64,000 nt of DNA, from the NCBI GenBank assembly GCA_964016885.1, contig CAXHJY010001727.1:32021-96020 (forward strand), written 5' to 3'. The notes beneath the pieces were generated by a model. That model had not been told where the DNA came from. It made no database searches and was given only the letters and a program-made list of their open reading frames with translations. The position numbers and the translations under genes were made by a program. Positions 257 through 61,473 of the stretch are shown here, one piece after another. The stretch comes from Eledone cirrhosa (Eukaryota). Every line of letters starts with the position of its first letter. The stretch's first letter is position 1.

Positions 257-460
257 GATATATATATTGTATTTTATCTGATGAGAGCGTACCAAAATGT
301 TGATAAATATGGTTTTATAAAGATAGTTTCCATTTATTAATATCATTGATATTATACTCCAGAAGAAAGGCTGTAGAGTGCTTCGAATCTGTTATAATTA
401 AATTTGTTGAATAACCAACAAATTAAATACCTCTTTGCATATACATATATATATATATAC

Positions 461-1550: not shown

Positions 1551-2195
1551 GTGACTACCTTTCTATTTGGGTCTAGTTCAATACTGAGCCCATGGTTCTT
1601 AAAGAAATGCCGAATTCGCCTCTTCATTCTCTCCACAATAGTGGTGCTGTGGTCATAGACTGTGAAGAGAGCATCGTCACGATATAATCCGCCAACCAGG
1701 CAGGTGATTTCTTCTTTTATCTGCTTCAGCAGGAAGAGCCGAACCAGGTCCGTTATCTGTGCGGAGTCGCTGGAGCCCATCGTGATGCCAAAGTTATTTG
1801 GCCATTCACTCCTGGTCCAAAGGTCCCCACCGAAACGGATCAAGGTCTTTCGGGCGGCGTGGATGATGCCTACCTCCTCGCGGGTTAGCTCCGTATTGGA
1901 CATCGCTAAAATAAGAGCCTTATTAAGTATTATGGGCGAGATTGAGTAGTAGTAGCCAGCAATATCCAGTTGGATAAAGCTGGTCCTAATTTTCTCAGGT
2001 AATACCGTAAACCATTCTATTACCTCTCCTGCGCATGACCATTGCTGTAATCTAGTTTTTTTTCCGAAGCTTAGGCAAAATCCTATCTAGTATGCTTTTA
2101 CTGACGACCTCCGGAGTAAACAAACCAACCTGCGTACTTCGTCGAGTGCTCCAATCTGCATACTAACGTGTCCGTAAACAACCAACATATACTCA
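1550..2195 (-). mobile_element. Penelope-like retroelement RT fragment with an inverted 5' tail (about 2109-2195)
   Basis: Minus-strand motifs SKSILDRI, FIQLDIAGYY.SI, FGITMGSSDSAQITDLV and GGLYRDDALF are homologous to the PLE ORF at 51.3 kb. Confidence 0.85.
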
Positions 2196-2924: not shown

Positions 2925-3118
2925 AGGATTGGCAGTATCGGTAGAGGGTTGGGTTAGACGCCATGCTTTGCAGCATAGAATTACGGCCCTTTACGGTATG
3001 GGTTCAAATCCCACCGAGGTTAGCTTTGCCTTTCATCCGTATGGGGTCGATAAAATAAAGTACCAGTAATGCACTGGAACAATTGCTGGCCTTGTGCCAA
3101 AAGTAGAGACATTATTAT
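2925..3118 (+). mobile_element. SINE family B
   Basis: GATTGGCAGTATCGGTAGAG...GGTTCAAATCC...TTTGCCTTTCATCC...GCCTTGTGCCAAAAGTAGA..(ATT)n. Homologues lie at about 3870-4020, 6295-6512, 15810-16025 and 16190-16562. Confidence 0.8.
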
Positions 3119-27873: not shown

Positions 27874-27966
27874 CATATATATACGCTATTCCGGGTTGAA
27901 TCGGAGGTAACCACAGTAAGTAAGGTACTCAATACATAGCAGAGTATAACAGTTTTAATATAGATG

Positions 27967-28011
27967 AGATTCTACAGGACTAGAACTGTTTCATTCATTA
28001 GAAATCATCAG
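27967..28011 (-). ncRNA. 5'-truncated hammerhead remnant
   Basis: Reverse complement: CTGATGA-TTTC TAAT GAAT-GAAA-CAG..CTG-TA-GAATCT; the 5' arm of stem I is replaced by microsatellite. Confidence 0.6.
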
Positions 28012-31930: not shown

Positions 31931-32160
31931 AGTAGAAGGGGTATTTAATTTGTTTGAATAATCCCTAATATATTTCCACTATCCAGTGAATTTCCAACCG
32001 ATAAGGTATGATTTTCATGGGTACATCTCTATTTATAAAACAAACTTTGTATTTTATCTGATGAAAGCGTACCAATGTTGTCTCGGTAGCCTTGAAATAT
32101 ATATAATAAAATAAATATGGTTTTATAAATATAGTTTCCATTTATTTAATATCATTGTAT
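31931..32160 (+). mobile_element. Short PLE-type element (inverted tail plus hammerhead pLTR), same family as 269-438
   Basis: 32049-32160 aligns with 269-350. The start (AGGGGTATTTAATTTGTT) is the reverse complement of about 416-433. Confidence 0.75.
32050..32113 (+). ncRNA. Minimal type I hammerhead ribozyme
   Basis: TATTTTAT-CTGATGA-AAGCGTACC..GGTAGCCTT-GAAA-TATATA-TA-ATAAAATA. Confidence 0.85.
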
Positions 32161-32936
32161 ATGTACATACATATACATACATACATACACATGCATATAT
32201 ATATATATATAAACTTTTTCAAATATATAATAAATAAATGCAGGCTTTCTTTTTCTTTAAATAAAATATAGTTTTTAAGAACCAGAAATATAATAACAAA
32301 CTGAATAGAGAAAACCCAGTTGAGTCATCTAAATAGTATGTTAGTTCGATGAATGCATATATACAAAGAATAAAGTGAAGATGAAGGAGAGCAGACAAAG
32401 GATGTCAGGAGAAAAACCCCTTCAGGAATAGAAGAATTAGAGAACAAATATAGTTTCGGAAAGAAGAAAATTTTATGAATAAATATTTGCAATTTAAGGT
32501 TTGTTTTTTAACCTCATCATCGCCATAGACTTTCATAAACTGAGACTCGCCTCACTCTATCTTTTTTTTCTTTCCAAAATTATATTAAACAAATTTGCTA
32601 TCATATAATGCTTTAATCCTTCAAGAAAAGCACAGTATAAATTCACTGCAAAACAAACTGATATTAAAAGCCATGACAACATGAAGCCAAAAGCTATCAT
32701 GTGCAACAAAACACACACACGATAGATAGCAAGTGGAATTACTCCACATTTTCAGTACAGATTAAGAGTTTTAAGGATAAACTACTCTAAAAAAATATAT
32801 ACACCCATGTAATCACAAGGCTTGAAAATTATTTAGGACCCAAGAGTAGATACCAGCCTAAAACTTAGCTCAATATAGTGAGGTGGTGTAGCCACAATGT
32901 AGTGTAATCAAATAGACAGCGCAATGGAAATCTGAG

Positions 32937-33175
32937 TTAACCCTTTAGTTACCAACCCAGCCAAAACCAATTCTAATTCTATGAAATAAAACCACCCATT
33001 TTAAAAGGTTTCCAATCTAAATTAAAATCTTCCAACATAATTTTATATTAGAACCTTACATCAAATTACTATCTTACTAATGAAGTGATTAATAATTTTA
33101 GTAAATCTCTCAAAGTTCTTCATTAATCAATTGAAATAGTGTATTTCATTAAAAATGTGGTCACGAAAGAGTTAA
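32937..33175. mobile_element. TTAA-flanked piggyBac-type MITE
   Basis: TTAA-CCCTTTAGTTACCA ... TGGTCACGAAAGAG-TTAA. Confidence 0.7.
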
Positions 33176-33584
33176 AACTATCTTCTGAAAAAACAAAAAA
33201 CAAAAACACTACAGTACTTTAACCATTAGGTTAACATATTTCTAATGCAAAACACTGATTTTCAAATAATGCATTAATGATCAAGAATTTGAAGGATTTA
33301 GTAAGATAACTTTCTCATTATTAAGCTGATGTTTGGCGCAATAGCTTAAAGATTCTTACATAAAATTATGATAGTAAGTTTTTAGATAAATATAAACACT
33401 TAAAAACCATGACAACATTAAGCCAAAAGCTATTGTATACAACAAAACACACATGATATAGATAGATAGCAAGTGAAATAATTCTACATTTTTAGTAGTT
33501 TCAGTCATGTTTTGTTTTCATTTTGTTCTTGGTTTTCCAATGACAAGCTCAAGAATCTTATGAATAAACCACCTTAAGAGATTA

Positions 33585-33592
33585 TATCTATA

Positions 33593-33637
<45 letters not shown>

Positions 33638-34063
33638 ATATCTATATCTATATATATCTATATATATATATATCTATATATATATATATATCTATATCTA
33701 TCTATCTATATATATATCTATATCTATCTATATATATATATATCTATATCTATCTATATATATATATATCTATATCTATCTATCTATATATATATATATC
33801 TATATCTATCTATATATATCTATCTATATATATATATCTATATCTATCTATCTCTATATCTATCTATCTATCTATCTCTATATCTATCTATCTATCTCTC
33901 TCTATATATATATATCTATATATATCTATATATATCTATATCTATATATATCTATATATATATCTATATATATATCTATCTATCTATATCTATCTATATC
34001 TATATCTATCTATATCTATATCTATCTATATATATATATATATATCTATATCTATATCTATAT
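33585..34063. repeat. (TA)n/(TATC)n microsatellite; the same type continues at 36873-37106
   Basis: TATATC/TATC units on both flanks of the Tx1 element. Confidence 0.95.
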
Positions 34064-36872
34064 CTAGCTGCGGATAGGAATAGGAAGGAAAGGGAGCTAA
34101 TAGATAGAGTAGAAGAGGCAATTAGAAGCGGTGACGTGGCCAGAGTGCTAGCGTCGAGAACGGCTTTGAGCCAGTTTTTCGACGCGAAGCACGAAGGCTG
34201 CGTTGTCCGAAGTAAAATACGTGCTCTAGGGAACGAGGGGACCAAAGCTGTTAGCTGGGCCCGCGTGACAGAGGCCAACAGTGGAACTAAATCCACCATC
34301 CGGTCTTTGCGAGACCTGGATGGACGGGCGATTCTTGAGCCTAAGCAGATGTGAGGCCTTTCAAAGGCACTTTGCCCGACTGTTCGGGAGGGGCGGGGAG
34401 CCGGTTGGGAACGTGGACTTCGGTCCATACCTCGACGGCCTGCCGCGCCTCTCGGACAGGGAGGCGAAGTCCTGCGAGGAGCCGATTTCGGCCGCTGAGA
34501 TAGAGGACGTGCTGAGCCAATGCGGCAAACGCAAATCCCCGGGTCTCGATGGTCTTCCTTACGAATTATATCTAGCTATGCCGGACTTGTTCCCCGATAT
34601 TCTCGAGGCAGTCTACTGCAACTGGCAACAGAACGGGAGAATTCCCTGTACTGTGACCAAGGGCGTAGTCACGCTAGTGAGGAAGGACGAGAACAAGGGG
34701 GACGAAATAAGTAACTTCAGGCCCATAACTCTGCTAAATACAGAGTTACAGATTTTGGCCAAGGTGCTAGCAAAGAGGTTGGCGCTTGTCGTGGGCAACC
34801 TGGTGGGAGATGTGCAGTAATGCGCTATCCCGTCCAGGTCCATCCATGACAACCTCCACCTCATGCGATACATCATAGAGAGGGTTGGGAACGAACCCGG
34901 CTTTGGTGGGGCTCTGATCAACTTGGATCAATCTAAGGCGTTCGATAGGGTCGACCATGGTTACCTGGATGCGGTGCTAGCGGCGGCAGGCTTCGGACCC
35001 GTTTTCAGGGGCTGGATCACTGCTATGCACAGCAGCCGCATCTGCTCTAGGGTCAAGGTGAACGGCTACCTCTCGGAGCCGTTCAAAATCGCGCGGTCCA
35101 TCCGACAAGGGTGCCCTCTCTCCTCCCTTCTGTATGTGTTGACTCTCGAGCCACTACTGCGGAAGTTGGAGTTGTTGCAGGGCATCCCTTTGGAACCGGG
35201 ATTGCGGAAAGCGGTGTCGGCCTATGCCGATGACATGACAGTAATGGTGTCGACGGCCTCCGAAATCGAGGCGGTCGGCACCTTACTGGAGGAGTACGAA
35301 AAAAGTTCACAGGGGCTAAGCTGAACCGGGACAAGTCGATCGGTTTGCAACTCGGCACGTGGAGGGGCAGACCGATGCCCTCCGATGGCGTCGTCGGACG
35401 CTGGACGGAGGGACCGGTGAAGTTGCTCGGGGTCTGGTTCGGACCGGACCTCCAGGTGGAGAAAAACTGGGTGGAGGTTACGAACAGGGTGTTTGCACTG
35501 ACCCAGAAGTGGGCCAGTTGCAAACTATCCCTGAAAGGTCGGGCGGAGGTGGCGAACACCTACATAGCGTCCGTCATCTGCTACCGCCTGACCGTAGTGC
35601 CCTGCCCAAGGGAAACCCTCACCAAGATGGAGCGCGCGCTCTTCCAATTCCTTTGGAAGAGGCGGGCTCCTATGGTGAGGAGATCCATCTGCTGTCAACA
35701 CCCTTCGAAAGGAGGGCTGGGGACGCCGTGGTTAATGATGCGTAAACACGCATTAAGGCTACGGCACCTCTACGTATTCCTCACCGGACAACCGGTGTGG
35801 GCCTCGTTTGTGAGACGAACCTTTCCCAGACTCGTCTCACTCACCGAGCTGCAATCCTGGGTCAAGCAAAGACCGAGAAAACTGGGCGCCTGGCACACTG
35901 AGTGTGCCCAGGCGCTCACCGCCCTCTGGCAGGCGGATCCGGTTATCACTGGAGACTCCACCGCAACATTCTATAGAGGGCTAGTACGCAGCAGGTGCGA
36001 CGACGCCCTCGGAGAAGCCCTAGACATGGAGGAGGACGAACTGGCCAGCCTGTTCGGTAGGACATTCAGCCCGAGACCTATGGACAACTTCCAGAAGTCC
36101 CCGGCCTGGCAGTGCTACCGAGGGGCTTTACCCGTTCGAGAAAGGCTCTACAGACACGGGCGCCCGGGTAGGGACCCCGCCAAAAAGATCTGTCCCAGAT
36201 GCGTGTGCGACGAGGAAACCGTTGCACACGCATTGGTACACTGCTCGGGCATTGCCGATCTGTGGGGCTATGTCGAACAACTGCTGTCAAGGGTGGGACC
36301 GATCCGGTTGACCACCGAGTCTATTGTAACGATCAAGCCGCCTCCCCTCTTCAAAAACGAAGGAGAGGCGGTGTTTCTGTACGTAATAGCCATGGCGAAA
36401 GAGGTTGTAAGGTGGACGCATCTGAAAGGACTGAGGTCAGACACCTTTCTCTCTGGCCAACAACTGGTCCGTTTCTTCCGATATCATTTCGGAAGAAGGA
36501 TCAGGATGGAGAGAGAGGTGCTGCACCCCAGCCGTTTTTATGAAAGATGGGTGAAAGTGGCGAGAATGGCCCGTGTGAATGGGCCTTCACTCTACATCAG
36601 ACTATAGGTGAGGAAGATGAAAGACCAAGGGAGCACCCCTTCTCTGTGCTCCTGAGGAGAAGGGTTGCACACTTTTTTTCGGGGGTGTGTGCGACCCCCC
36701 CAAGGCGCCTCCTCTCTATTGAGGACTTTGTTATAAATTTTATTTTTTGTTATATTTTATTTTATTTTTATATATTGTTATTGCCTCCTCCTTATTGAGG
36801 ACGCCTTGTTTTGTAAACTCCCCCCATTGTACTTGTCCCACTTTTGATGCCCTGGTGGCAAATAAAAGAAAC
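34064..36872 (+). mobile_element. L1/Tx1-clade LINE, 5'-truncated, disrupted ORF2
   Basis: KSPGLDGLPYELY, NFRPITLLN, LDQSKAFDRV, RQGCPLS, AYADD, LSLKGRA and a CPRC...ETVAHALVHC zinc knuckle; stop at 36607 and AATAAA at 36861. GC-rich relative to the host. Confidence 0.93.
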
Positions 36873-37106
36873 ATATCTATATATCTATATATATATCTAT
36901 ATCTATATCTATATCTATATCTATATCTCTATATATATATCTATATATATATCTATATATATATATCTATATATATATATCTATATATATATCTATATAT
37001 ATATCTATATATATATCTATATATATATATATATATATCTATATATATATATCTATATATATCTATATCTATATCTATCTATATATATCTATATATATAT
37101 ATATAT

Positions 37107-37548
37107 TTCAGGTCTCTACATTGCTGTAGTAGAGTCTGTGCTGCTGTATGGGTCTGAGACTTGGACACTGACCAAGAAACTCACTCAGATGGTGGATGGG
37201 TGCTCCACGAGAATGCTGAGGATGGCTCTGAACATTAATCAGTATACACTGAAGATGAAAAACTCAGAGCTGTATGGGAGCATCCCAAAAGTCAGCTCAA
37301 AAGTGACACAGAGGAGACTGGGGTTAGCTGGACATGCTCACCGACATCCAGAGTTGACATTGCACTCAGTGCTCCTTTGGGAGCCCCTACATGGACACAC
37401 TAGAAGAGGAAGACCAAGGTTAACGTATGTTGATGCCCTAAGGACAGACACTGGTCTGTTGGAGATGCAGGACATGGCAGCAATAATGAGGGACAGAGAC
37501 CGCTGGAGAGAACTCGTCCATGGATCTCGGGAATTTTACCCGCCTTAG
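37107..37548 (+). mobile_element. 3' fragment of a second RTE-like LINE family
   Basis: [15 protein letters not shown]...RMLR...[11 protein letters not shown]...[11 protein letters not shown]. Confidence 0.85.
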
Positions 37549-37550
37549 AT

Positions 37551-37599
<49 letters not shown>

Positions 37600-37601
<2 letters not shown>

Positions 37602-37933
37602 AGGCACATGGCTTAGTGGTTAAAACATTGTCCTTGCAATTGAAAGGTTGTGAGTTCAATTCTCAGACCGGGTGCTGTGTTGTTTCCTAGAGCAAGACAC
37701 TTTATTTCACATTACTCGAGTTTACTCAGCTGTAGAAATGAGATGAAAGGGACTGGGGTTCATATCATTCCACTGGTGGTCGTGGAGGTGCCACGGCAAA
37801 AAAGCACCTAGCACGCACTGTAAATGAGGTTGGTGTTAAGAAGGGCATCCAGCTGTAGAAATCAAGCCAAAATCAGTTCCCGTCCCACCCTTGCAAGCAG
37901 GGAAAAAGCGGACGTAAAAATGAAATGATGATG
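37600..37933 (+). mobile_element. SINE family A, full length
   Basis: Same head, core and tail as 8478-8855. Confidence 0.88.
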
Positions 37934-38431
37934 ATATATATATATATATACATACACCCATGCAATTAGAATTATATAAACTATTAGCAGTAGTATTAAC
38001 GCAACTTGATTCAGAATATATGGAAGTATATAGAATATGTCTGTGTATAATAAACATACATTGTGATATCATAGCTACCTCAGTATACTGCAATAGGAAA
38101 TTTCAAACCATTAAACATATCATATTGCTAGTGAGAATGATCCTCCCTACACACACACATTATATATATATCATCACCATTTAACGTCCATTTTTCCATG
38201 TTAGCATAGGTTAGACTGGTTGTTCCGTTTCAGGCAAGTTGGGAAAGGTGACCGTGTCATGCTCACACGGGACTGTTTCTGGCTTGGTTTCTATGGCTGG
38301 ATGCCCTTCCTAATGCCAACCATATTTACTGTGTGGGCTGGGGTTCTTTTTGCTGTGTCGCCATCATGACCACTTTATAGTGTGGGCTCGAGGCTTCACT
38401 AGATGTATGGTAAGATGAGGTGGGGATGGTG

Positions 38432-38472
<41 letters not shown>

Positions 38473-40496
38473 ACTTCAAGCTTCAGCCTGTGCCTATGGG
38501 TAGGCAGGTCTTCTGTATCACTGCATAACACCAGATATCCCAGTCCTGTATCAATATATGATATATATATATATATACACCCATACAATAATCTTTGACC
38601 AAGCAATGTAACTTTTTGTATGGCCACTTGACCTGCAAAAGACAATCTTTAATATGGAGACTATATCATTATTTTAAAGACAATTTTTCATGTTGGTATA
38701 TGTTAGGCCAACACTGCACGTTTTAAAACTCCTCTTTTTTTTTAATGGCCTAGTCAAGAGGAAGGTTAGCACCCATGAACATCTGGGCTGCAAGATTGAT
38801 GGCAGGAAGTTGTCTGCAGGTTGGATACCTAGCCTAAATTATTGCAATAGAGAGGACTTTAGTAAAGGCAACTGAGGGCCAAATAGTGGTGATATAAACA
38901 GAATGACAATGATTTGACATCCAATTTTCCATGCTAGTATGAGTTGGACGAGTTGTCATGGTTGAAGACAAGGACCAGGGCAACCTCATCTTGTTCATTC
39001 ATTCTACATTTGGCACAGTTTCTATGGCCGAGTGCCTTTCCTAACACCAACCACCTTACAGGGTCTACTGAATGTGTTTTCTTAGCATCACCACTACTAT
39101 TTTACAGAATAAATTGGGTGCAGTTTTTCAAGGCACCAGCACTTTATAGATTACATATACGAACATGCTTCAAAATAATACAATTTTTAAAATATAATTA
39201 CTGATGAAATCAAATGATGCATCTGTCCACACATGCCTATAGTGTGGTTGGTGACAAGAAGGGTATCCTGCCATAGAAAACTTGCCAAACAAACGGTGAC
39301 AAAGACATGGAAAATGACAATGATGAAATGCATGTGTGTGTGTGACTGTACTGATAATCTACATGATAAACACACCCAGTACACACTAAAGTGATTGATG
39401 ACTGGAAGGGCATCCAGTCATAGAAAGCTTGCCAAACAAAGGGTTTGGAGGACCCTTCAGCTGTGTCAAAGACATGACAATCTTCCTAGAGCTGGTGTCA
39501 TAATAAAATGCACTCAGAGCATATGAACATTTAGTAAGAGGGTGCAGGAAGGTCTCTGGCCCATCCAAGATGTCAGTAGTATCACTTCAGTACTGACTTG
39601 GTCTGTGACAACCTGTCCAACCTTTATTAGCAGGGAAAATAGACATTAAATGATGATGATAATGACAATGATTATATATGCAAGTGTGTCTTTTTGTGTT
39701 TACAGTTGTGTCAATGTTTATATCTCATAACTTATCAGTTCTACAAATAGAGATCAATTAAAAAGTATCAGATTTGGGAGCAATTATGATTGACTAAATG
39801 AAGTTGGTGTCCCAGCATGTAAATAACCTGATTTTACATCCACTTTCCATGCTGGAACTGACAACCAGTTCATACTCACACATACACAAACAAACTCTAA
39901 ATCTTAAAATAACTATCATGTGTAAAAAAAATATATATATATATATATAAAGAAACATCAAATTTTCATTTATATTTAGAAGATTGTTGACAGAATATTA
40001 AAATTTTGAATATAAGAAAGCTTAATGATGCAAAAACTGATAATGTTAGATGTAAAGCAAAAATATGATTCGATTTTTATAGGATTTTTGTTGCTATTTT
40101 CATACAATTTCTTTTTAATCTTCCAAAAATTAATTTTTTGTTGAAATTTTTCCTATAATAAAATAACTGAAATTTCCCTATAATCAAATTATATTGTTTT
40201 GAACTTTTAGAAATAAAACATGTCTATATATATATATATATATATAATAAAAAGCCCCCCCCCCCTCCCCAACAACTCACATAAAGAAATTTAATTACTA
40301 AAATCATATTTTTAAATGAATTTTGGAAATAAATTTAAAATTAAATCAACTGATTCTAGAAAGATTCATACATACATAATATATATATATTAATACACAA
40401 ACATACATATATATATATATATATAAACAAATACAATTACACATGTATATATATGCACGCACATATATATCAATTCACATACATATACACATATGC

Positions 40497-40527
<31 letters not shown>

Positions 40528-40790
40528 GTGTTTATATATGTATGTATATATACATATGCATATATTCACACATACACACGCACACATCTGACACATCACT
40601 CTATAATTAGTATATTCTTTTAAAATAGATTTCCTGCAAACTAAATCTTACATTTGCTGTCAATTGCAGCTGTTTCTCACCTGTCAACAACTAAAACTGA
40701 TTTAATACTATGATTGGATTAATTAATTAATAAATCAATATTTATTCAAAAAGTAAAAAATGAATGATAAATCAAACAAAAAGACATTCA

Positions 40791-40842
<52 letters not shown>

Positions 40843-41014
40843 ATACATACACAAGAGAGAGAGAAAGAGACATATACATACATATAATTGGTGTTGGATG
40901 CTTAAAGCGTCCGTATGCGGTAGGCCGTTTGAGCACTCGATGCTCTCATACAGCAGAGTATGATATTACAAAAAAAAAAAGAGAATCAGTGTTGCGACGA
41001 ATGGAATTTATTGG

Positions 41015-41108
41015 ACATATTACAATTGTTTCTCTGGCGACCAGCTCCATGCACTTTCAATGTGATTATCGAACCTGACTCTGAAAATCGCAAGGTCCTC
41101 AGATACGT
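41015..41108 (-). ncRNA. Minimal type I hammerhead ribozyme
   Basis: Reverse complement: ACGTAT-CTGAGGA-CCTTGCGA..TCGCCAGA-GAAA-CAATTG-TA-ATATGT; the base of stem II is imperfect. Confidence 0.75.
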
Positions 41109-41365
41109 TTTGATTCTACAAAGCATATATACATACAATATACACATACATACATACACAGATATACATATATATATGTATACACATACATACATACACA
41201 GATATACATATATATATATGTATACACATACATACATATATATACACATACATACATACAGATATACATACATAGCTTGACCACAGCCACATAGCGATTC
41301 TTAGCCATTTTTTAATCTAATTTTGGCGCAATCGGGTTAGAAAACTAGATGTCTGATTTTGAGTT

Positions 41366-41444
41366 TGTCTCCTGATGAATCCTAACTCAAGACATTCCTA
41401 TTATTTGGATGTCTAAAAATACGGATGAAACCATGGTAGAGATA
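41366..41444 (+). ncRNA. Minimal type I hammerhead ribozyme
   Basis: TGTCTC-CTGATGA-ATCC..GGAT-GAAA-CCATGG-TA-GAGATA. Confidence 0.88.
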
Positions 41445-41841
41445 TAATTACGGTATGTACACATTTCTTCTAAGTTTAATTTTACACCTAATTGTGTATG
41501 GTTGATGATATATTTAGTCAGTTTCTACATGCTGGCGAAATGTTGGATAAATAATCTATTGGGGCCACCGCGAAGAGGCCACTTGCAGTTATTTGTCGGA
41601 GATTTCTTCATAAGAGCCTTTCTTCTTATAGCTTGGTCTAATTGATTTTTTATATGGTTAATTATGCTAATTAGAAGAGGAAATAGAATTATTAGATAAA
41701 ATATATACTAAGGACATGATTTATGATATATATATATGTATGTATATACATATATACACATACATACATACAGATATACATACATATATATATATATATA
41801 TATGTATGTATACACATATATACACATACATACATACAGAT

Positions 41842-41883
<42 letters not shown>

Positions 41884-42097
41884 ACACATATATACATATA
41901 TATATATATATATGTATGTATACACATATATACATATACACATACATATATATACAGATATACATACATATATATATATTAGGGTAAACATTGATGCAAT
42001 TCAATTCAAGCACTCAACGTACTTTTTCCACATAGGAGTGACGGAGTAAATATCGAATAAGGAAAAGCGAAGTAGTTTCAGATGTTCAAGTCCTTTA

Positions 42098-42287
42098 ATA
42101 ATAATTGTTTCTACTTTAGGCACAAGGCCAGCAATTATCCAGTGCATTACTGGTACTTTATTTTATCGACCCCGTAAGGATGAAAGGCAAAGTCAACCTC
42201 GGCGGGATTTGAACTCAGATCATAAAGGGACGTAACTATGCTGGAAAGCATGGCGTCCGACCCTCTACCGATACTGCCAATCCACCA
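42098..42287 (-). mobile_element. SINE family B inserted into a PLE-derived element just 3' of its hammerhead
   Basis: Reverse complement closely matches 2925-3118. Confidence 0.82.
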
Positions 42288-42289
42288 AT

Positions 42290-42363
42290 GCTGTGATATA
42301 TATTTCAATGGCGACATTGGCCACACAGTTCTGTGTGCGAGTGTCGTGACATCATCAGACAGC
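42290..42363 (-). ncRNA. Minimal type I hammerhead ribozyme
   Basis: Reverse complement: GCTGT-CTGATGA-..CGACA..CACACAG AA CTGTGTG..TGTCG..-GAAA-TATATA-TC-ACAGC. Confidence 0.78.
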
Positions 42364-44035
42364 TTGTTACATAATAAGGTTATGTTTCCGAGGCAATCCA
42401 AATTGAATCGACATGGGAACGGATGAAATGCGTGCTTTTGGGTTTATCACCCGTTCCCCTGTGAGTACCAATTCACCCCCACCGGTCTGCGCGTGCACAT
42501 GTCCAAAGGAAGTTGACCATTAGCTACCGCAGATTTCAACGAAATTCGCTTAGTCAGTTCACCCTCTCAGCGACACAATGGCCCGTACCATAGTTTACTG
42601 CTACCCATCTCGACTTTGGTAATCAGTCGAAAGCCAGATGGGGTGGGAGAGTGTTAGTTTTTACTGGTCATAATACTACCTCTCACCTAGCGTGGACAGT
42701 ACGACTGACCATCAACTCAAAGGGAAAATGAACTTAATTCTAGGTATCATGATTTTACATTGTAAGTTAAGAGTGAGAGTTGGAAATAAAAATTAAGTCC
42801 TAAATCAAGTATCAGAAATTATAAATTAAACAATTAAAAAATTAACAATGAGTAATTAAAAGTTAGAAATTTTTTTCAATTGAGGATTCGGATTGAGGTG
42901 AGTAAAAAAATATAGATTGAAGTGAGTAAATAATATGGAGAGAGATGTTTAAGTAAGAAGTTCTGAGAGGGATTCTAGTGTCACAGTTACTCTATCCACA
43001 TATTGAACGACAGTGCCGTACATTAGAACGGAGGGTAAGCTAGAGCATTCAAGGCATTAGTCAATCTGGTACAGTCATAATTTCCATCACATGGAACAAT
43101 ACCAAAGAAAAACAGACATAGAAGAAAAAAATGCAAAAACAATATGCAAAATGATCCATATGATTGTCATTCCGTCCATGTATAGATTGAATTGAGGGGG
43201 CTTCTGTTCAAATGCGATTTGATGCAGGGAAATAGGGGTTTATCTTATTTTTTGTTTCCGTGTATTTATCCTGCCGAAAGTTACTATTATGTCCGGCCAG
43301 TTTCAGGCGTTTCCATCCCCACGGTAGAGGGAATTTCCGGGGTAGCTCATGGTTGGTTCCTCTCTTCTCCACCATATCGGTTACATCGTAAAGCGCTCAA
43401 CTAATTGGAGCTAAATTATTAGGGTAAACATTGATGCAATTCAATTCAAGCACTCAACGTACTTTTTCCACAATATATATATGTATGAAAACGTACATAC
43501 ATACATATATATACGCATACATATATATACGTATACACATAAATATATATACATACATACATATATATATATATATATGTATACACATACATACATATAC
43601 ACATACATATATCTATATACACATACATACATACATATACACATACATACATACATATACACATACATACATATATATACATACAAACATACATACACAT
43701 ACATACATACAAACATATATATATATACACATACATACATATATATATACATACGTACATATATATATACACACATACATATAAACACATACATACATAT
43801 ATATATACACATACATACATATATATACACATACATACATATATATATATACACATACATACATATATATACACGTACATACATATATATACACATACAT
43901 ACATATATATACACATACATATATATATATATACATACATATATATATACATACATATATATATACATACATATATATATACATACATATATATATATAC
44001 ATACATATATATATATACATATATATATATACATA

Positions 44036-44253
44036 TAATATAAGATCAAAAGATGGTTAAACGAGTTCCATGTATTTTATTATGCGCATTTCAAAAACAA
44101 ACATCATCATGCAATAATGTTTGTGTTTTCATCAGATAAAACAGGAGAACATGATATGAAGGCTAAAAAACACTTGTGGGTAGTGCAGTTTTAAATCAAC
44201 TTATCCGATATCTGCATTGCTTTATTGTACTACAATAAAACTCACCTCCTACA
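44036..44253 (-). mobile_element. 218-bp mini-copy of the 51.3-54.1 kb PLE (inverted tail plus pLTR)
   Basis: 44200-44253 is the reverse complement of 51259-51312. 44036-44199 is the reverse complement of about 53965-54130 with a few substitutions. Confidence 0.9.
44074..44142 (-). ncRNA. Minimal type I hammerhead ribozyme
   Basis: Reverse complement: TTTTAT-CTGATGA-AAACACAAACATTATT GCAT GATGATGTTTGTTTTT-GAAA-TGCGCA-TA-ATAAAA. Confidence 0.88.
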
Positions 44254-46841
44254 TTATATATACATATATATATCTATATCTATATATATACACATACATA
44301 TATATATCTATATATATACACATACATACATATATATATGTATCTATATATATACACATACATACATATATATATGTATCTATATATATACACATACATA
44401 TATATATACATATATATATATATATACACATACATACATATATATACACATACATACATATATATACACATACATACATATATATATACACATACATACA
44501 TACACATACATACATATATATATACACATACATACATATATATATACACATACATACATATATACACATACATACATATATATATACACATACATACATA
44601 TATCTATATATATATATATACACATACATACATATATATACATATATATATATACACATACATACATATATATACATATATACACACATACATACATATA
44701 TACACATACATATATATACATATATACACATACATATATATACATATATACACATACATACATATATATACATATATACACATACATACATATACATATA
44801 TACACATACATACATATATATACATAAATACATATATATACATAAATACATATATATACATATATACACATACATACATATACATATATACACATACATA
44901 CATATATATACACATACATACATATATATACATATATACACATACATATATATACATATATACACATACATACATATATACACATACATACACATACATA
45001 CATATATACACATACATACATATATACACATACATACATATATATACACATACATACATATATATACACATACATACATATATATATACACATACATACA
45101 TATATATATACACATACATACATATATATATACACATACATACATATATATATACACATACATACATATATATATATACACATACATATATATATACACA
45201 TACATATATATATACACATACATATATATATACACATACATACATATATATATATATATACACATACATACATATATATATATACACACATACATACACA
45301 TACATACATATATATATACACATACATACATATATATATACACATACATACATACACATACATACATATATATATACACATACATACATATATATATACA
45401 CATACATACATATACATATACACATACATACATATATATACATATATATATATACATATATATATATACACATATATATATATATACATATATATATATA
45501 CACATACGTATATATAAATATATATATATATATACACATACATATATATAAATATATATATATATATACACATACATATATATACACATACATATATATA
45601 AATATATATATATATATATACACATACATATATATAAATATATATATATATATATACACATACATATATATACATACATATATATAAATATATATATATA
45701 TATATACACATACATATATATACATACATATATATAAATATATATATATATATATACACATACATATATATACACATACATATATATACACATACATATA
45801 TATAAATATATATATATATATATACACATACATATATATAAATATATATATATATATATACACATACATATATATACACATACATATATATAAATATATA
45901 TATATATATATACACACATATATATACACATACATATATATAAATATATATATATATATACATATATATATGTATACACATACATATATATATATATACA
46001 TATATATATGTATACACATACATATATATATATACATATATATATGTATACACATACATATATATATACATATATATATGTATACACATACATATATATA
46101 TACATATATATATGTATACACATACATATATATATATATACATATATATATGTATACACATACATATATATATATATACATATATATATGTATACACATA
46201 CATATATATATATATACATATACATATGTATACACATACATATATATATATATACATATATATATGTATACACATACATATATATATATATACATATATA
46301 TATGTATACACATACATATATATATATATATACATATATATATATGTATACACATACATATATATATATATATACATATATATATGTATACACATACATA
46401 TATATACACATACATATATATATATACATATATATATGTATACACATACATATATATATATATACATATATATATGTATACACATACATATATATATATA
46501 TACATATATATATGTATACACATACATATATATATATATACATATATATATGTATACACATACATACATATATATACATATATATATGTATACACATACA
46601 TACATATATATATGTATACACATACATATATATATGTATACACATACATATATATATGTATACACATACATATATATATGTATACACATACATACATATA
46701 TGTATACACATACATACATATATGTATACACATACATACATATATGTATACACATACATATATATATGTATACACATACATACATACATATATATATGTA
46801 TACACATACATACATATATATACATACATATATATGTATAC

Positions 46842-46875
<34 letters not shown>

Positions 46876-46879
46876 ATAC

Positions 46880-46913
<34 letters not shown>

Positions 46914-46995
46914 ATACACATACATATATATACATACATATATATGTATACACGTACATATATATACATACATACATATATATGTATACACATAC

Positions 46996-47031
<36 letters not shown>

Positions 47032-47152
47032 GTATACACATACATATATATACATACATATATATGTATACACATACATATATATGTATACACATACATA
47101 TATATGTATACACATACATATATATATACATACATATATATGTATACAAATA

Positions 47153-47637
47153 CATCATCATCATCATCGTTTAACGTCCATGTTCCACGCTTGCATGGGT
47201 TTGGACGGGAGTTTTCCCACTTGAGGCAAGAGTGGTTGTCTTGCTTGCATAGGACTGTCTGGATGCCCTTCCTAAGACCAACCACATTTACAGTGTGGAA
47301 CTGGGAGGTTTTTACCGTGTTGCCTACACGGCCACATTACAGCGTGGACTGTGTGTTTTTTGTCGTGACACCTACACGATCTCATTTGTTTCGGCCTGGA
47401 TGTTGTGGCACCAACGTAACTTTACATTGAAAGGGGCGGTGTGGATGAGGTGGGGGTGGTGTGACGGGGGCGTATTTTGTTAGAGATGCCTACTGACAGT
47501 AGTAGGTTTACTTTGTATTTAGGCAAGGCGGGTCTTCTCTATTACTGAGTACCGCCGAAGATCTCGGTCCAGTGACATTGTCTTGGAGAGGTGTAAGTGT
47601 GTGAGGTCGGAATTTATCAGGTCGTCCCAGGTTTTCC
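47153..47637 (-). mobile_element. 3' end of the same RTE family
   Basis: Encodes [26 protein letters not shown], plus the 3' UTR and a (GAT)n tail. Confidence 0.92.
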
Positions 47638-48209
47638 TATATATACATATATATACACATATGTATATATACATATATATACATATACACATATATATAG
47701 ATACATATACATATACATATATACATATACACATATATATAGATACATATACATATACATATATACATATACATATACATATACATACACATATACATAT
47801 ATACATATACATATACATACATATACATACATACATATACATATATATACATACATATACATATATATATACATATATATATACATACATATATATATAC
47901 ATACATATACATATACATACATATACATATATATATACATACATATACATATATATATACATACATATACATATATATATACATACATATACATATATAC
48001 ATATATATATACATACATATATACATACATATACATATCTACATATACATATATAATATATACATACATACATATATACATACATATATATATATACATA
48101 CATATATACATATATATATACATATATATATACAAACATATATATATACATATATATATACATACATATATACATACATATATATATACATACATATATA
48201 CATATATAT

Positions 48210-49141
48210 ATCCAGGATCTGGATGCCATATACAAATGGGCGGAAGAAAACAACATGCAGTTTAATGCTGGCAAATTCCAAGCCCTACAATACAAACCTG
48301 CAAACACAAACACAAATATAGCGGAACACAGCTACACAGGACCAGGAGGGACCGATATCCCCGTGTCAAAATCGATACGAGACCTGGGCATAGACATGAG
48401 CGATGATGCATCTTTTTCTTCACACATCATGAAGGTGGCGACAGCATGTAGACGATTCGCTGGCTGGATCTTGAGGACTTTCCTTACAAGAGATCGAGAC
48501 ACCATGTTGACACTGTGGAGGACTTTTGTCCTAAGCCGCCTGGACTACTGCTCCCAGCTGTGGTCACCCCATAGTGTCAAACTAACCACAGAGCTTGAGG
48601 CAATCCAGCGAAGCTACACCAAGAGGATTGCCAAGATGAGGGAGACAAGCTACTGGGAGAGGCTGAAGGAACTGAACCTCTACTCCTTGGAGCGAAGACG
48701 GGAGAGATACGCAGTGATCTACATGTGGAAAATCCTGGAGGGACTAGCACCAAACTTTGGCATTGGGAGCTGGACCAACCGTCGAACAGGACGTCACTGT
48801 GTGGTGCCAAAGGTCCCGTCTTCCACATCTAGAATAAGGAGCAGGTATTGCAATAGCCTGGGATTCAAGGGCCCTCAACTCTTCAACAGGCTGCCGAGGC
48901 ATCTGCGAGACTTGCATGACGTGGAGGTGGATGTCTTTAAGAAACATCTCGACACCTTGTTATCCAGGATCCCAGATGAGCCCACAGCAAGACACGAGGG
49001 AAACCTAAGGGCAGCAGCAACAAACTCCCTCCTACACCAGTGGCCAACCTATACAGGCTGGAGATAAAATGTGTAGCAACAAGGGCGGTGCCCCAGCATG
49101 GCCTCAGCCGGATGGCTGAAACAGGTAAAAGAGTAAAAGAG
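48210..49141 (+). mobile_element. CR1-group LINE 3' fragment
   Basis: [38 protein letters not shown] and [18 protein letters not shown]; short 3' UTR ending in (GTAAAAGA)2. Confidence 0.9.
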
Positions 49142-49952
49142 TATGTATATATACATATACATATATACATACATATATATACACATACATATATATATAC
49201 ATACATATATATATACATACATATATATATACTTATATATACATGTATATATATACATGTATATATATACATATATATACATACATATACATGTATATAT
49301 ATACATGTATATATATACATATATATACATACATATACATATATATATATACATACATATACATACATATATATACATACATATACATACATATATACAT
49401 ACATATATATACATATACATACACATATATATACATATATATACACATATATATACATATATATACACATATATATGTATATATACATATATATATACAT
49501 ATATATACATATATATATACATATATATACATATAGATATATACATATATATACATATAGATATATACATATATATACATATATATGTATAGATATATAT
49601 ACATATATATACATATATATATAGATATATATACATATATATACATATATATACATATACATCTATATACATATACATACATATACATCTATATACATAT
49701 ACATATATATACATCTATATACATATACATCTATATACATATACATCTATATACATATACATATATATTATACATATACATACATATATACCTATACATA
49801 TATATATATACATATACATATATACCTATACATATATATATACATATATATATATACATATACATATATATATACATATATATATATACATATACATATA
49901 TATATACATATATATATATACATATACATATATACCTATATACATATATATA

Positions 49953-49983
<31 letters not shown>

Positions 49984-51003
49984 ACATATTTATATACAAA
50001 CACATATATATATATATAAATACATATATATACATATATATAATATATATACACATATATATATATACATATACACACATATATATATATATATACATAT
50101 ACACACATATATATATATATATACATATACACACATATATATATATACATATACACACATATATATATATTCATATACACACATATATATATATATACAT
50201 ATACACACATATATATATATATACATATACACAAATATATATATATATACATATACACACATATATATATATATACATATACACACATATATATATATAT
50301 ACATATACACACATATATATATATATACATATACACACATATATATATATATACATATACACATATATATATATACATATACACATATATATATATACAT
50401 ATAACACATATATATATATACATATACACATATATATATATACATATACACACATATATATATATACATATACACACATATATATATACATATACACACA
50501 TATATATATATACATATACACACATATATATATATACATATACACACATATATATATATACATATACACACATATATATATACATATACACACATATATA
50601 TATATACATATACACACATAATATATATATACATATACACACATATATATATATATACACATATATATATATACATATACACACATATATATATATATAC
50701 ACATATATATATACATATACACACATATATATATACATATACACATATATATATATACATATACACATATATATATATACATATACACATATATATATAT
50801 ACATATACACATATATATATATACATATATATATGTATATATATACATATATATACATATATATATATATACATATATATACATATATATATATATGTAA
50901 TATATACATTATATACATATACATATATATATATATACATATATATATATACATATATATATACATATACATATATATATATATATACATATATAATATA
51001 TAC

Positions 51004-51036
<33 letters not shown>

Positions 51037-51119
51037 CATATATATATACATATACATATATATATATATATACATATATATATACATATACATATATATA
51101 TATATATACATATATATAC

Positions 51120-51154
<35 letters not shown>

Positions 51155-51201
51155 CATATATATATACATATACATATATATATATATATACATATATATA
51201 C

Positions 51202-51234
<33 letters not shown>

Positions 51235-51258
51235 CATATATATATACATATACATATA

Positions 51259-54130
51259 TGTAGGAGGTGAGTTTTATTGTAGTACAATAAAGCAATGCAG
51301 ATATCGGATAAGAAGCACTCTACAGTTTGTGGGACTGGAGTATGCATAATATAAGATCAAACTTCGACATCACAATGGGAGCATCCGATTCATCCCAATT
51401 GACTGATTTAATTGGTATCTTCATTTTGAACTCTTTGAGTCGGAAAATTCCTCAACTTCGCGGTGGAATTTATCGTGACGATGGACTCTTTACTATCCTA
51501 AATTGCAATATAGTTAAACTTAATATTATTAAGAACAATATACGTAATCTCTTTAACCAACATAACCTAAAAATTGAATTTGATAATAGTACCAAACTAG
51601 CTAATTTCTTGGATGTATCTCTTAATCTTGACACTGGCCTATATTACCCTTACCATAAAAACAATGAGAATCTTAATTATGTTAACTTTAAATCTAACCA
51701 TCCTACCAATATCAAGAATGCTATAGTTAATAATATTGGAAATAGAATATCTAACATATCTTCTAATAAAAACATCTTTGATGCTAACGCCAATTACTAT
51801 AATAACGCACTTTCTAAAGCTGGCTATCCAGATAAAATCAAATATAATAAAGAAACAAATTCTAGGAAAACTTACAGTAGAATATTTAATCATAACCATT
51901 CCAATAATTTTAATAAAAGACCTAGATACAAAAACATAATCTGGTATAATGCTCCTTTCTCCATCTCTATTAATAACAATATTCCTAAATTATTTTTTAG
52001 TGCCTTAAATAAATGCTTCCCTCCCTCACATATCTATAGTAAAATATTTAACAAACACACCATTAAATTTTCGTATTCTACATCCTCCAATATTTCCAAC
52101 ATCATTTCTAAACACAACAACAAAATATTAAATACTAAATCTCTTCCTTCCAATATTGAATCTCATAATAACAATAATAGTACTCCTGACGTCATTGTAA
52201 ACCCTAGGCTAACTTCTGTAAACCCAAATGCAACGTCAAACACAACTTCGCTAAATGTTCATAATCCAACTCTAAATCAAGAAACTATTATTCCTATTAT
52301 TCCTATCGCAAACAACTTCTCCAATCCAATTCCTTCTATAGATAACACTAGATCACTCATTAATAATCTCTCTAATTGCAACTGCCGCATTAAAAATAAA
52401 TGTCCTCTCAACAACCATTGCCTCGATAAAAACTTAATTTATGAATGTAAAATTATAACTAGCACCAACTCCTTCACCTATTTTGGCTCCACTTCCACCT
52501 CTTTTAAAGCTCGTCTCTATAATCATCATTCATCTTTCAAATACAAACTTAAAAGAACTAACACTGCTCTCTCAGAACTCATATGGTCCTTAAAAGACAA
52601 AAACATTAAATATAACATCTTTTGGAAAAAGATTTCTTCTGCATCCTCGTACTTGAACAGTTCTCTATCTAAAATCTGTAATCTCTGCCTAAATGAAAAA
52701 TTTACCATTATCTCTAACCTAGAATCCATAATAAATAGACGCTCGGATTTGTTTTCCATCTGCCTTCATAAATTCCATAGAACTTTTCACAAAGTATACA
52801 GTTAATATTCAATTCTTTATCAATTTAGAATCTTTTCTCAAAGGCACATATACATACACCTCTTTAAAATATACCCATCTACCTTACTTTAAAGGGCATT
52901 ATATACTCTATAGTACTCGTTTATTCATTTACCTCATCCTATCTTCTCGTAAAACAATAACATTTGTTTTTGACATTTTGAATATTCATCCGCAATCATT
53001 ATTATTTTTTTTTCCCTCTATCATAAATCTTTTTAATCTCAATTTCATCCTTAATTTATTATTATATATATTTTTTTTAATATATACTCATATATTCTTT
53101 AAAATATACCCATCTACCTTACTTTAAAGGGCATTATACACTCTATAATACCCGTTTACTCATCACCCTCATTATATCTCTTCGTAAAACAATAACATTT
53201 GTTTTTGACATTTTGAGTATTCATCCGCAATCATTATTATTTTTTCTCTCTATCATAAATCTTTTTAATCTCAATTTCATCCTTAATTTATTATTATTAT
53301 TTTTTTCTCCCCATCAACGAACTCATTATTAATACATATGAATTCAATATAAATTTTTCTCAAATCCTATACATAAACATTTTCTCTTTGCTAATTTTAA
53401 GATTCCTACATTTCTCCTTTTGAATATTCACCCACAATTATTATTTTTTTCTCTCTATCTCCATACATAATCTCCCTTCGTTATTTTTTTCTCTCTATCT
53501 CCATACATAATTTCCCTTCGTTAATTTTCAAATTCCTTTAATTTATACATTATCTTCCAACGGTTCCCAACCTCTCTATATTAAAACATTATATCTTTTT
53601 CTCAGTTATAAAAACTATCTCTTTCTCTCTATCACCCATCTCTCCCTTTCCACCTTCACTCTCATCTCCTCCCCTTTTTTTCATCCTTTCCACCCCCACC
53701 CCTCCCTAAATATAATATATTTTTTCCTCGCACATATCCTCCCTTCGTTAATTTTCAAAATTTTTAATTTATACAGTATCTTCCAACGGTTTTCAACCCC
53801 TCTATATAAAATATATCTCCTCTCTGTTATAAAAACTATCTCTTTCTCTCTATCACCCATCTCTCCCTCTCATCTCCTTCCCTTTTCATCCTTTTCTCTC
53901 CCCCCCTCTCTAAATAAAATATTTTTCCCAATATCACACATCAATCTAAAACCACTTTTCATATGTTGATTTAAAACTGCACTATCAACAAGTGTTTTTT
54001 TAGCCTTCATATCATGTTCTCCTGTTTTATCTGATGAAAACACAAATATTATTGTTTGATGATGTTTGTTTTTGAAATGCGCATAATAAAATATATTGAA
54101 CTCCTTTAACCATCTTTTGATCTTATATTA
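51259..54130 (+). mobile_element. Penelope-like element: inverted 5' tail (51259-51361), RT and GIY-YIG ORF (to 52805), long 3'UTR and hammerhead-containing pLTR
   Basis: FDITMGASDSSQLTDLIG, GGIYRDDGLF, NFLDVSL, YVNFKSNHP, CNCR..CPL..C and IYECKI...TYFGST. TAATATAAGATCAAA at about 51347-51361 is the reverse complement of the element's 3' end. Confidence 0.93.
54024..54092 (+). ncRNA. Minimal type I hammerhead ribozyme
   Basis: TTTTAT-CTGATGA-long stem II-GAAA-TGCGCA-TA-ATAAAA; predicted cleavage after 54085. Confidence 0.88.
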
Positions 54131-59399
<5,269 letters not shown>

Positions 59400-61473
59400 T
59401 CGACCCAATAGAGGGACCAGCAGTGTTAGTCGAGGGGAGTATAATAAGGCAATCAAGGATATGAAGACGGGTAAGGCGGCTGGGCCTTTGGAAATAGTTG
59501 CTGAGATGCTGAAGGCATCTGGCACGGTGGGACACACCATGGTCACCCGCATAGTTAACCAAGTCGTACAGAATGGGGTTTTTCCGAAGGACTGGCATAG
59601 CAGCATCATCGTTAACTGTTATAAGGGTAAAGGAGACGCCCTAGATAGGAGTAACTATAGAGGCATTAAATTAATCGACCAGGTCATGAAGGTCACGGAA
59701 AAAGTAATAGCGCAACTAATCAGAGAGAGAATTGACCTAGATGAAATGCAGTTCGGGTTTGTGTCAGGCAAAAGTACCACAGACGCTCTTTTCATAGTAC
59801 GACAACTACAGGAGAAGTACCTAGCTAAAGGTAAACCCCTCTACTTAGCTTTTGTCGACTTGGAGAAAGCCTTCGACAGAGTCCCCCGCTCCATTATCTG
59901 GTGGGCTCTTAGAAAACTAGGCGTTGACGAATGGCTTGTGAGGGCTATACAAGCCATGTATAAAGAAACAGTCAGCAAGGTTAGAATTAACAACGAATAT
60001 AGTGAAGAGTTTAGCGTAAAAGTTGGCGTCCATCAGGGCTCTGTTCTCAGCCCCCTACTATTTATTATTGCCCTTCAGGCTATAACAGAGGAGTTCAAGA
60101 CAGGCTGCCCATGGGAACTCCTATACGCAGACGACCTGACACTCATAGCGGAATCAATGGCCGAGCTAGAGAAGAAATTCCAAACATGGAAGCACGGCCT
60201 AGAGTCAAAAGGACTTAAAATTAACCTGGCTAAGACCAAAGTACTAGTTTGTAGGAAAGAAAACAAGGCGGCGGTCCCTTCTGGGAAATGGTCGTGCTCG
60301 GTGTGTAGGAAAGGCGTAGGTAGAAACTCCATTTTATGTCCTAAATGCAAAGTATGGGTGCATAAAAGATGTAGTGGGATCACAGGTAAGCTAACTAAGA
60401 ACATAGATTTTACATGTGGCCGGTGTTCTGGTGCAATAAGTAGCAGCAAGTGCCCACAAAATACTAGCTCTTTCAATTGCGCAGAGGGTTCTATAGAAAT
60501 AGTGGACAGCTTCCGTTACCTGGGCGATAAAATCAGCAGTGGGGGAGGGTGCTCAGAAAGTACTGTAGCTAGAGTCAGAACTGGTTGGAAAAAGTTCAGA
60601 GAGCTTATACCACTATTAGCTGCTAAAGGGTTCTCCCTAAAAATGAAAGGCAGGTTGTACGATGCCTGCATACGAACAGCAATGCTGCATGGCAGTGAGA
60701 CCTGGGCATTGTGTGCAGAGGATATACGCAGACTAGAGAGGAACGAAGCTTGCATGCTCCGCTGGATGTGTAACAGTAATATACGTGAACGGCAAAGCAT
60801 AAACGAACTAAGGAAAAAATTAGAGATAAGAGGGATCAGATGTTGTTTACTCGAGAGAAGGCTACGTTGGTATGGACACGTGATGCGCATGAAAGTCGAT
60901 AGCTGTATAACAAAGTGCAGGGCAATAAAGATAGACGGTAGTCACGGAATAGGCAGACCTAGAAAAACCTGGGACGAGCTGATAAACTCCGACATCACAC
61001 ACTCACACCTCTCCAAGACAATGTCACTGGACCGAGACCTTTGGCGGTACTCAGTAACAGAGAAGACCCGCCTTACCTAAATATATAGTAAAACCTACTC
61101 CAGCCAGTAGGCATCTCTAACAAAATACACCCCGTCCCCACCACCACCACCCCCACCCCATCCACACCACCCCGTTCTATGTAAAGTTATGTTGGTGCTG
61201 CGCCATCGAGGCCGAAACAAATGAGATCGTGTAGGTGTCACGACAAAAAAATACACAGTCCACGCTGTAATGTGGCCGTGTAGGCAACATGGTAAAAACC
61301 TCCCAGACCCACACTGTAAATGTGGTTGGTGTTAGGAAGGGCATCCAACTGTAGAAAACCTGCCAGACAGTCCTATGCGAGCAAGACAATCACTCTTGCC
61401 TCAAGTGGGACTACCCCCGTCCAAACCCATGCAAGCATGGAACACGGACGTTAAACGTTGATGATGATGATGA
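59400..61473 (+). mobile_element. RTE-clade LINE, 5'-truncated, with an open RT ORF (59461-61080)
   Basis: Complete RT motifs (NYRGIKL, QFGF, DLEKAFD, QGSVLSP, YADD), an embedded C4HC3 PHD-like finger and a (GAT)n tail. Confidence 0.96.

Follow-up and report, generated by a model that had tools for sequence, protein, structure and literature searches.

Two tandem hairpins may position both insertion ends of Penelope-like elements in Eledone cirrhosa

Penelope-like elements (PLEs) are the closest mobile relatives of telomerase reverse transcriptase (RT), and the way in which they form inverted ends and tails is described as an open question in the available portions of PMC8557442 and PMC11167929. 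For the Poseidon element PAc of Anolis carolinensis (Frangieh et al. 2024, PMC11167929), the portions at hand report that both target strands are nicked and extended in vitro, with two internal RT starts, a predicted dimer and no strand difference in start site; they describe no duplicated cis-element, no one-of-each coupling of ends and no common inner end. Here we analyse the PLE copies in a 64,000-nucleotide (nt) stretch of the Eledone cirrhosa genome (assembly GCA_964016885.1, contig CAXHJY010001727.1, positions 32,021 to 96,020 of the forward strand), hereafter the window, which is rich in (TA)n-type microsatellites, together with genome-wide searches of the 3.0-Gb assembly. These copies resemble PAc in having a hammerhead-like motif upstream of two apparent starts, a tail between the starts, an AT-rich target and genomic ends at the start positions; they differ in clade and in tail length, which is 30–40 nt in PAc and 70–90 nt here. 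That there are two starts and that the tail is one-sided was already known; two internal RT starts, inferred in a preliminary description of the window, had been shown in vitro for PAc. What appears to be new is a duplicated hairpin that would position both ends, the measured coupling of these ends and the consequence for the template.

In the twin priming of LINE-1, two target nicks prime two complementary DNAs (cDNAs) on one RNA, which results in an inversion; the second start falls at random internal matches and the event is occasional. In contrast, both starts appear fixed in the elements described here and their paired use is the rule. For the Hydra clade of PLEs, Craig et al. 2021 (PMC8557442) ascribe the tail, in the portions available, to nuclease resolution and found few families, unlike the several families of 10^4 copies seen here. 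The Penelope elements of Adineta vaga, as presented in the sections of PMC3846280 that treat them, likewise have head-to-head arms, a tail on one pseudo-long terminal repeat (pLTR) and palindromes at the inner junction, and their inverted pLTRs were explained by self-priming on an antisense template. The literature searched, with subscription journals outside its scope, holds no description of a duplicated hairpin or of a counted one-of-each coupling.

The preliminary description had proposed that copies end at two defined positions about a bulged hairpin. All ends that it named were located, 0–5 nt from its numbers, and the hairpin motif T-ACTY...GAGT-RC was found in six window copies by motif scan. 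As it had observed, the 51.3–54.1 kb element and the 44 kb mini-copy end about 4 nt before the hairpin, at what we call site 1, and the 32 kb copy likewise ends at site 1; site 2 lies past this hairpin (hairpin 1). The copies fall into six families (A, C, E, F, G and H), not one.

The census of ends rests on the first listed places of exact-anchor searches of the genome. The family A anchor lay just upstream of site 1 and was unbiased as to end. Among the first 100 of its 23,583 exact matches, which fall on contig C1, 50 arms ended at site 1, 45 ended at site 2, four read through and one had a deleted hairpin; none ended between the two sites. Broad scatter of the ends, the outcome that would have spoken against the preliminary description, was thus not seen, as 95 of the 100 anchors led to one of two positions. 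Arms holding the core of the putative ribozyme reached site 1 in 112 of 113 cases. Among the matches listed for the other families, the same ends recurred. In family C (28,056 matches), 39 of 66 arms ended at site 1 and 22 at site 2, with two read-through and three other arms; in family F (12,852 matches), 34 arms comprised 14 at each site, three read-through and three other, one of which ends inside the hairpin. The family H anchor (914 matches) favours hairpin-bearing arms, and its 36 arms gave 10 at site 1, 20 at site 2, three read-through and three other, while in family G (225 matches) 32 of 40 arms in a set selected on the hairpin ended at site 2. At least three families have more than 10,000 anchor matches each. 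The two defined ends are confirmed as real and genome-wide. Segmental duplication of a few insertions, as a source of the common ends, is refuted by this census and retains practically no probability. Two neighbouring stubs at C1:5.39 Mb do have equal spacing, but the copies number in the tens of thousands and represent several families, loci differ in their inner junctions and in their subfamily variants, and the non-microsatellite flanks of the two window copies show no side-for-side match.

The read-through copies provide insight into site 2. Just past it lies a second, paralogous hairpin (hairpin 2), seen in family A (L008, L062 and L187), C (L253 and L265), F (L302 and L314) and H (L268, L270, L290 and window positions 43412-43393). 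The ends, therefore, do not bracket one hairpin, as had been thought; each precedes its own copy. Both copies have a 4-bp base stem (RCTC/GAGY) and a 3' bulge followed by RC. They lie 70–91 nt apart (90–91 nt in A and C, 71 nt in F), 3' of the hammerhead motif and 5' of the open reading frame (ORF), and a scan of 4,185 nt of the element body gave no hairpin-type match. In an alignment of 14 hairpins, 96% of the 56 base-stem cells are paired, with A-U in the first copy and G-C in the second, and the conservation of the hairpin sequence may point to recognition by a protein. The tails of the 44 kb and 32 kb copies lack the hairpin motif because they are too short to hold it. Insertions end mostly 2–8 nt 5' of their own hairpin copy, at site 1 and site 2 alike. 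At site 2 of family A, 48 arms end at offsets of -7..-5, 15 at -5..-3 and 8 at -10..-8, with 2 single, 9 unclassified and 4 read-through; at site 1, 27 arms end at -6..-3, 14 at -6, 10 at -11..-6 and 2 at -3, with 44 unclassified as variants or read-through. These ranges reflect TA microhomology at the junctions. The offsets in C, F and H cover the same range.

The preliminary description had measured the second start from a single hairpin, at a fixed distance 3' of it. In the window, the distance from hairpin 1 to site 2 is 55 nt in A, 57 in C, 45 in E, 40 in F, 48 in G and 30 in H, so that the proposed span of about 30–55 nt holds as a range (30–57 nt) and fails as one fixed distance. The distance is constant within each family, as a ruler of this kind would require, but differs between families, from 30 nt to the approximately 60 nt reached in genome copies of family C, while the distance from site 2 to hairpin 2 is nearly constant, within a few nt, across families. 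This reading is largely refuted and we hold it to be very improbable. It is also quite improbable that the hairpins are incidental and that the ends are set only by pairing of a TA-rich primer with the RNA, or by RNA 3' ends at these places. TA/AT dinucleotides do occur at both sites, junction classes follow them, and family A has an AATAAA about 40 nt upstream of site 1. However, TA-rich stretches are numerous elsewhere in the RNA, none of 100 ends fell between sites 1 and 2, only 1 of 113 arms stopped short of site 1, and such pairing gives no reason for the one-of-each pairing of arms described below or for a motif kept across phyla.

Read by eye, the consensi in File S7 of PMC8557442 show the duplication in published Hydra elements from other phyla as well. 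The Hydra-1_Ajap consensus opens with a pair of these hairpins and closes immediately 5' of the first one; that of Hydra-1_Crog closes beyond copy 1 and opens about 5 nt upstream of copy 2, whose stem is altered yet paired; Hydra-2_Amil and Hydra-2_Ajap end with copy 1 plus 25–27 nt. The layout in Hydra-1_Amil and Hydra-1_Obim is not clear by eye. The two hairpins stand in this consensus file and go without mention in the available text of the same paper. The PAc RNA drawn in Supplementary Figure 1 of PMC11167929 has two similar motifs (GGCCA...AGCC...GAC) 41 nt apart, near the 30–40 nt length of its tail; they are possibly the Poseidon counterpart of the duplicated hairpin.

Most two-armed insertions have one end at each site. 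Head-to-head pairs of family A combine a site 1 end with a site 2 end in 25 of 29 cases (hand tally, first 100 anchors; p=5e-5 against independent choice), as do 22 of 23 pairs in family C, where one further pair has a read-through arm, and all 11 in family F. Among 14 pairs of family H, 9 are clear, 3 have a partner that ends in (CT)n at the place of site 1 and 2 have read-through arms; none has like-with-like ends. A separate set, chosen upstream of both sites, gave one of each in 11 of 11 pairs. In agreement with the idea that the inverted-tail shape arises from the use of both sites, one on each strand of the target, we consider it likely that the two tandem hairpins position both ends, with one subunit per hairpin, each priming from one nicked target strand. 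One protein subunit would bind each RNA hairpin, nick one strand of the (TA)n target and start its cDNA just 5' of this hairpin; the ends would then be RT start sites in this clade, and the dimer with one subunit per hairpin is suggested by analogy with PAc. The two cDNAs would extend toward each other until their 3' ends were linked; the product would be a head-to-head repeat in which only one arm contains the stretch between the hairpins (the tail).

Paired arms are nearly identical, with a median difference of 1 per 100 nt against 5 between loci in family A (48 pairs) and 0 against 9 in family C (17 pairs), and this near-identity holds even for arms 2.5–5 kb apart. They would derive either from one template or from conversion. 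The inner ends of arms concentrate at a place about 166 nt upstream of site 1, termed site 0 (position 53960 of the window), where there is a 6-nt palindrome; 23 of 41 site-1 plus site-2 pairs with arms of at least 100 nt span 300–340 nt, i.e. both arms stop at site 0. A single RT start at site 2, with the cDNA 3' end folding back and its DNA copy stopping or being cut at site 1, would predict one long and one tail-less arm as well as near-identical arms. The palindrome at site 0 would suit it; self-priming at palindromes was proposed in PMC3846280 and nuclease resolution of the tail was suggested in PMC8557442, in the portions at hand. Such a fold-back cannot copy what the first cDNA lacks, yet site-1 arms extend past the 5' limit of the site-2 arm by hundreds of nt and up to 2,770 nt. 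This is seen in L066, L116, L130, L201 and both window copies, and in the 51–54 kb copy the reach is 2,770 nt against about 10 nt. Arm lengths measured automatically were too long in symmetric stubs, with 12 of 44 junctions resolved, so only clearly asymmetric rows were used here. The arms of the 44 kb copy share no overlap, so frequent one-sided deletions would be required; the same conserved motif at a similar offset after both sites would be left unexplained; and PAc, in the portions of PMC11167929 available, has two starts on the RNA. We regard fold-back from a single start as unlikely. Site-0 ends also adjoin non-mirror sequence in L070, L091, L107, L125 and the 44 kb copy, and site 0 therefore behaves as a template end, not merely a palindrome. 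It is likely the RNA 5' end, i.e. a transcription start.

Priming at two hairpins carries a consequence for the template. If the RNA starts at site 0, the two cDNAs would run off after about 165 and about 255 nt, leaving abundant stubs. As hairpin 2 lies outside 95 of 100 ends, an ORF-length cDNA would therefore need a template with the hairpins downstream of the ORF. Candidates are a ribozyme-made circle, a multimer, or a strand transfer from one pLTR copy to another. There are 229 listed exact read-through sites, and the first 100 of them include no same-strand double read-through tandem. Six ORF-bearing read-through arms have 5' ends at about -14, -37, -109 and -206, with two beyond -420; none of the six stops at site 0. 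These small numbers lean toward circles or multimers as template. We propose only tentatively, and with rather more doubt than assent, that programmed twin priming on the duplicated hairpin is combined with an ORF mainly copied from ribozyme-made circular RNA, the hammerhead being essential.

By motif scan, the pLTR contains the core motifs and stem I of a putative hammerhead ribozyme. An Rfam search of the window at gathering score returned no hammerhead and matched only a transfer RNA (tRNA), and the hammerhead-like region folds with z = -0.69 against shuffles. In most arms the sequence continues across the ribozyme motif as far as site 0 or further, i.e. the template was uncleaved at the hammerhead; ligated circles would look alike. 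PAc did not require ribozyme cleavage in vitro and uncleaved RNA was used, according to the available part of PMC11167929.

Family H has no ORF and forms tandem arrays. It resembles the non-LTR retrozymes, as described in accessible portions of PMC7229834 and bioRxiv 10.64898/2026.07.22.740005, in being ORF-less, in bearing a hammerhead-like motif, in its tandem arrays and in its PLE-type ends; its unit is 1.3 kb, compared with the 51–972 nt reported there. Hammerhead-driven RNA circles were demonstrated for retrozymes in these reports, while circles of the PLEs are here only proposed. Beyond these reports, we identify a cis-element common to family H and the PLEs, which would let the PLE protein move family H. 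At C1:130882088-130893822, an array of 1.3-kb family H units switches from the minus to the plus strand mid-array, a head-to-head insertion with multimer arms.

Several observations weigh against positioning by two hairpins. The hairpins are weak (-3 to -6 kcal/mol), their region folds no better than shuffles (z -1.2 and -1.5), the double change of the stem from A-U to G-C amounts to one inherited event, and hairpin 2 of family F was misaligned in one alignment. A clean read-through copy was seen in 0 of 40 cases in family G, where there is one remnant (L336), and in 0 of 5 in family E, so that hairpin 2 is only putative in these two families. Variants leave many arms unclassified for offset, and some ends are as far out as -8 to -11. 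As for the pairing, 4 of 29 family A pairs are like-with-like, two with site 2 twice and two with site 1 twice, and one of 23 in family C is site 1/site 1 (L262). The arms of the two site 2/site 2 pairs in the family A census differ by 4–5 and these are perhaps separate insertions, while L103 and L138 are real site 2/site 2 pairs with nearly identical arms. The identity of arms could also stem from gene conversion or fold-back. Finally, the starts of PAc are described, in the portion of PMC11167929 available, inside an AC-rich stem loop and not 5' of one.

By sequence, the copies are best described as Hydra-clade PLEs inserted in (TA)n. There is a single ORF with a PLE-type RT, seen as a frame of 727 amino acids (aa) in L209 that carries FDI and GxYRDDG motifs and has 25 homologs; the only named protein homolog is from Argonauta. 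The marks of the Hydra clade given in available portions of PMC8557442 are DKT, a CxCX5C linker, and CxxC/CxH near the nuclease end. DKT replaces DKG (SDKTNN in P0002, with D122 nearly invariant), and the family A protein P0001 has the linker CNCRIKNKC together with CNLC and CLH, CCHH being absent. The N-terminal RWK position reads RWI in family A, and RWR and RWK among homologs. A nuclease-like IY...YFG...FKAR pattern is read by eye at the C-terminus; a Pfam profile search of the window fragment gave no match, and a PDB profile search for solved relatives returned 0 matches. A metagenome scan for relatives yielded 196 candidates, none confirmed. Insertion in (TA)n, which is typical of the clade, occurs across the families examined, and tandem or inverted pLTRs with a one-sided tail, expected of endonuclease-bearing (EN+) PLEs, are present. 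Hydra-clade elements are generally <3 kb (PMC8557442, portion available), whereas the family A unit is about 3.3–3.5 kb (C1:5.050-5.053 Mb) because its 3' untranslated region is repeated. Family E is a relative.

In the window (Table 1), family A is represented by the 51.3–54.1 kb and 44 kb copies, C by those at 267–438 and 31.9–32.2 kb, and E, F, G and H lie at 1.56–2.19, 27.9, 40.9 and 42.0–43.5 kb, respectively. The family A insertions are flanked by 2–5 kb of microsatellite (44248-47150, 49134-51259 and 54131-59398), much longer than at most C1 loci, which may reflect expansion or an effect of the assembly. PLE families can be nested in one another's (TA)n flanks, as with a family C anchor between two family A arms (L214, C1:10048437-10052554).

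Table 1 PLE features in the window. Positions are those of the window; motifs and element parts were assigned by scan or comparison.
Feature	Position	Strand	Remarks
Family C arm, site 2 end	267..438	+	Sense copy, site 2 at 438; hairpin 1 355-381; ribozyme motif partly deleted
Family E RT fragment	1560..2086	-	43% identity to family A protein over 160 aa
Family E inverted arm, site 2 end	2105..2194	+	Site 2 at 2194
Family F arm, putative ribozyme core to site 2	27885..28011	-	Sense copy, site 2 at 27885; hairpin 1 27946-27925
Family C short inverted site-2 arm	31932..31960	-	Site 2 at 31932
Family C sense arm, site 1 end	31961..32160	+	Site 1 at 32160 (+); hammerhead-like motif from 32058
Family G arm, site 2 end	40885..41141	-	Sense copy, site 2 at 40885; hairpin 1 40960-40933
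Family H ORF-less 1.3-kb unit, slightly >1 unit	41980..43472	-	Sense copy, site 2 at 41980; hairpin 1 42048-42010; SINE 42098-42283
Family H hairpin 2	43393..43412	-	Visible because the unit reads through site 2 (43420); overlooked in the preliminary description
Family A mini-copy, site-1 arm, site 0 to site 1	44036..44199	-	Site 1 at 44036 (-)
Family A mini-copy, site-2 arm, 53 nt	44200..44252	+	Inverted arm, site 2 at 44252; no overlap with site-1 arm
Family A inverted arm, site 2 outer end 51260	51260..51360	-	Hairpin 1 51342-51315 and AT-rich spacer hairpin
Family A 5'-truncated Hydra-type ORF	51361..52805	+	RT core end, CxCX5C linker, C-terminal GIY-YIG-like nuclease; motifs compared with PMC8557442 (portion available)
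Family A site 0, common inner (5') arm end	53960..53977	+	About 166 nt before site 1; probable RNA 5' end
Family A minimal type I hammerhead-like motif	54018..54095	+	CUGAUGA...GAAA, palindromic stem III; motif scan
Family A sense arm, site 1 end	54119..54130	+	Site 1 at 54130 (+), about 4 nt ahead of expected hairpin 1 start; abuts (TA)n

Other features were noted in the window. The short interspersed element (SINE)-like repeat of the family H copy sits between the ribozyme motif and site 1; it recurs at 2926-3118, directly after the tRNA match (55 bits, Rfam, 2838-2910), and elsewhere. The stretch 62689-63540 has 63-nt perfect inverted ends and a hammerhead-like core at 62917 (-), and is maybe another PLE stub; a further hammerhead-like core (41372, +) lies in 41267-41718, with microsatellite on its flanks. 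A 586-nt direct repeat of 97% identity (21123-21708 and 25441-26024) has about 3.7 kb of microsatellite between its copies. Two copies of an element that matches RVT_1 and PHD, 94% identical, lie in opposite orientation at 17574-19311 and 59715-61463. A guanine from an RNA cap at a fixed inner tail end, present at 30 of 30 loci in a rare-word DNA search and in 0 of about 92 arms in a pattern search, was rejected as a search artefact.

With a cis-element that is defined and duplicated, and a start predicted a few bases upstream of either copy, the mechanism of PLE insertion becomes accessible to simple mutation and spacing tests in an existing assay, and the hairpin motif is a short signature for locating PLE ends and their non-autonomous partners. 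If true, the combination of twin priming on the duplicated hairpin with a ribozyme-made circle would jointly explain the inverted pLTRs, the one-sided tail, the partial tandems and the mobilisation of retrozymes.

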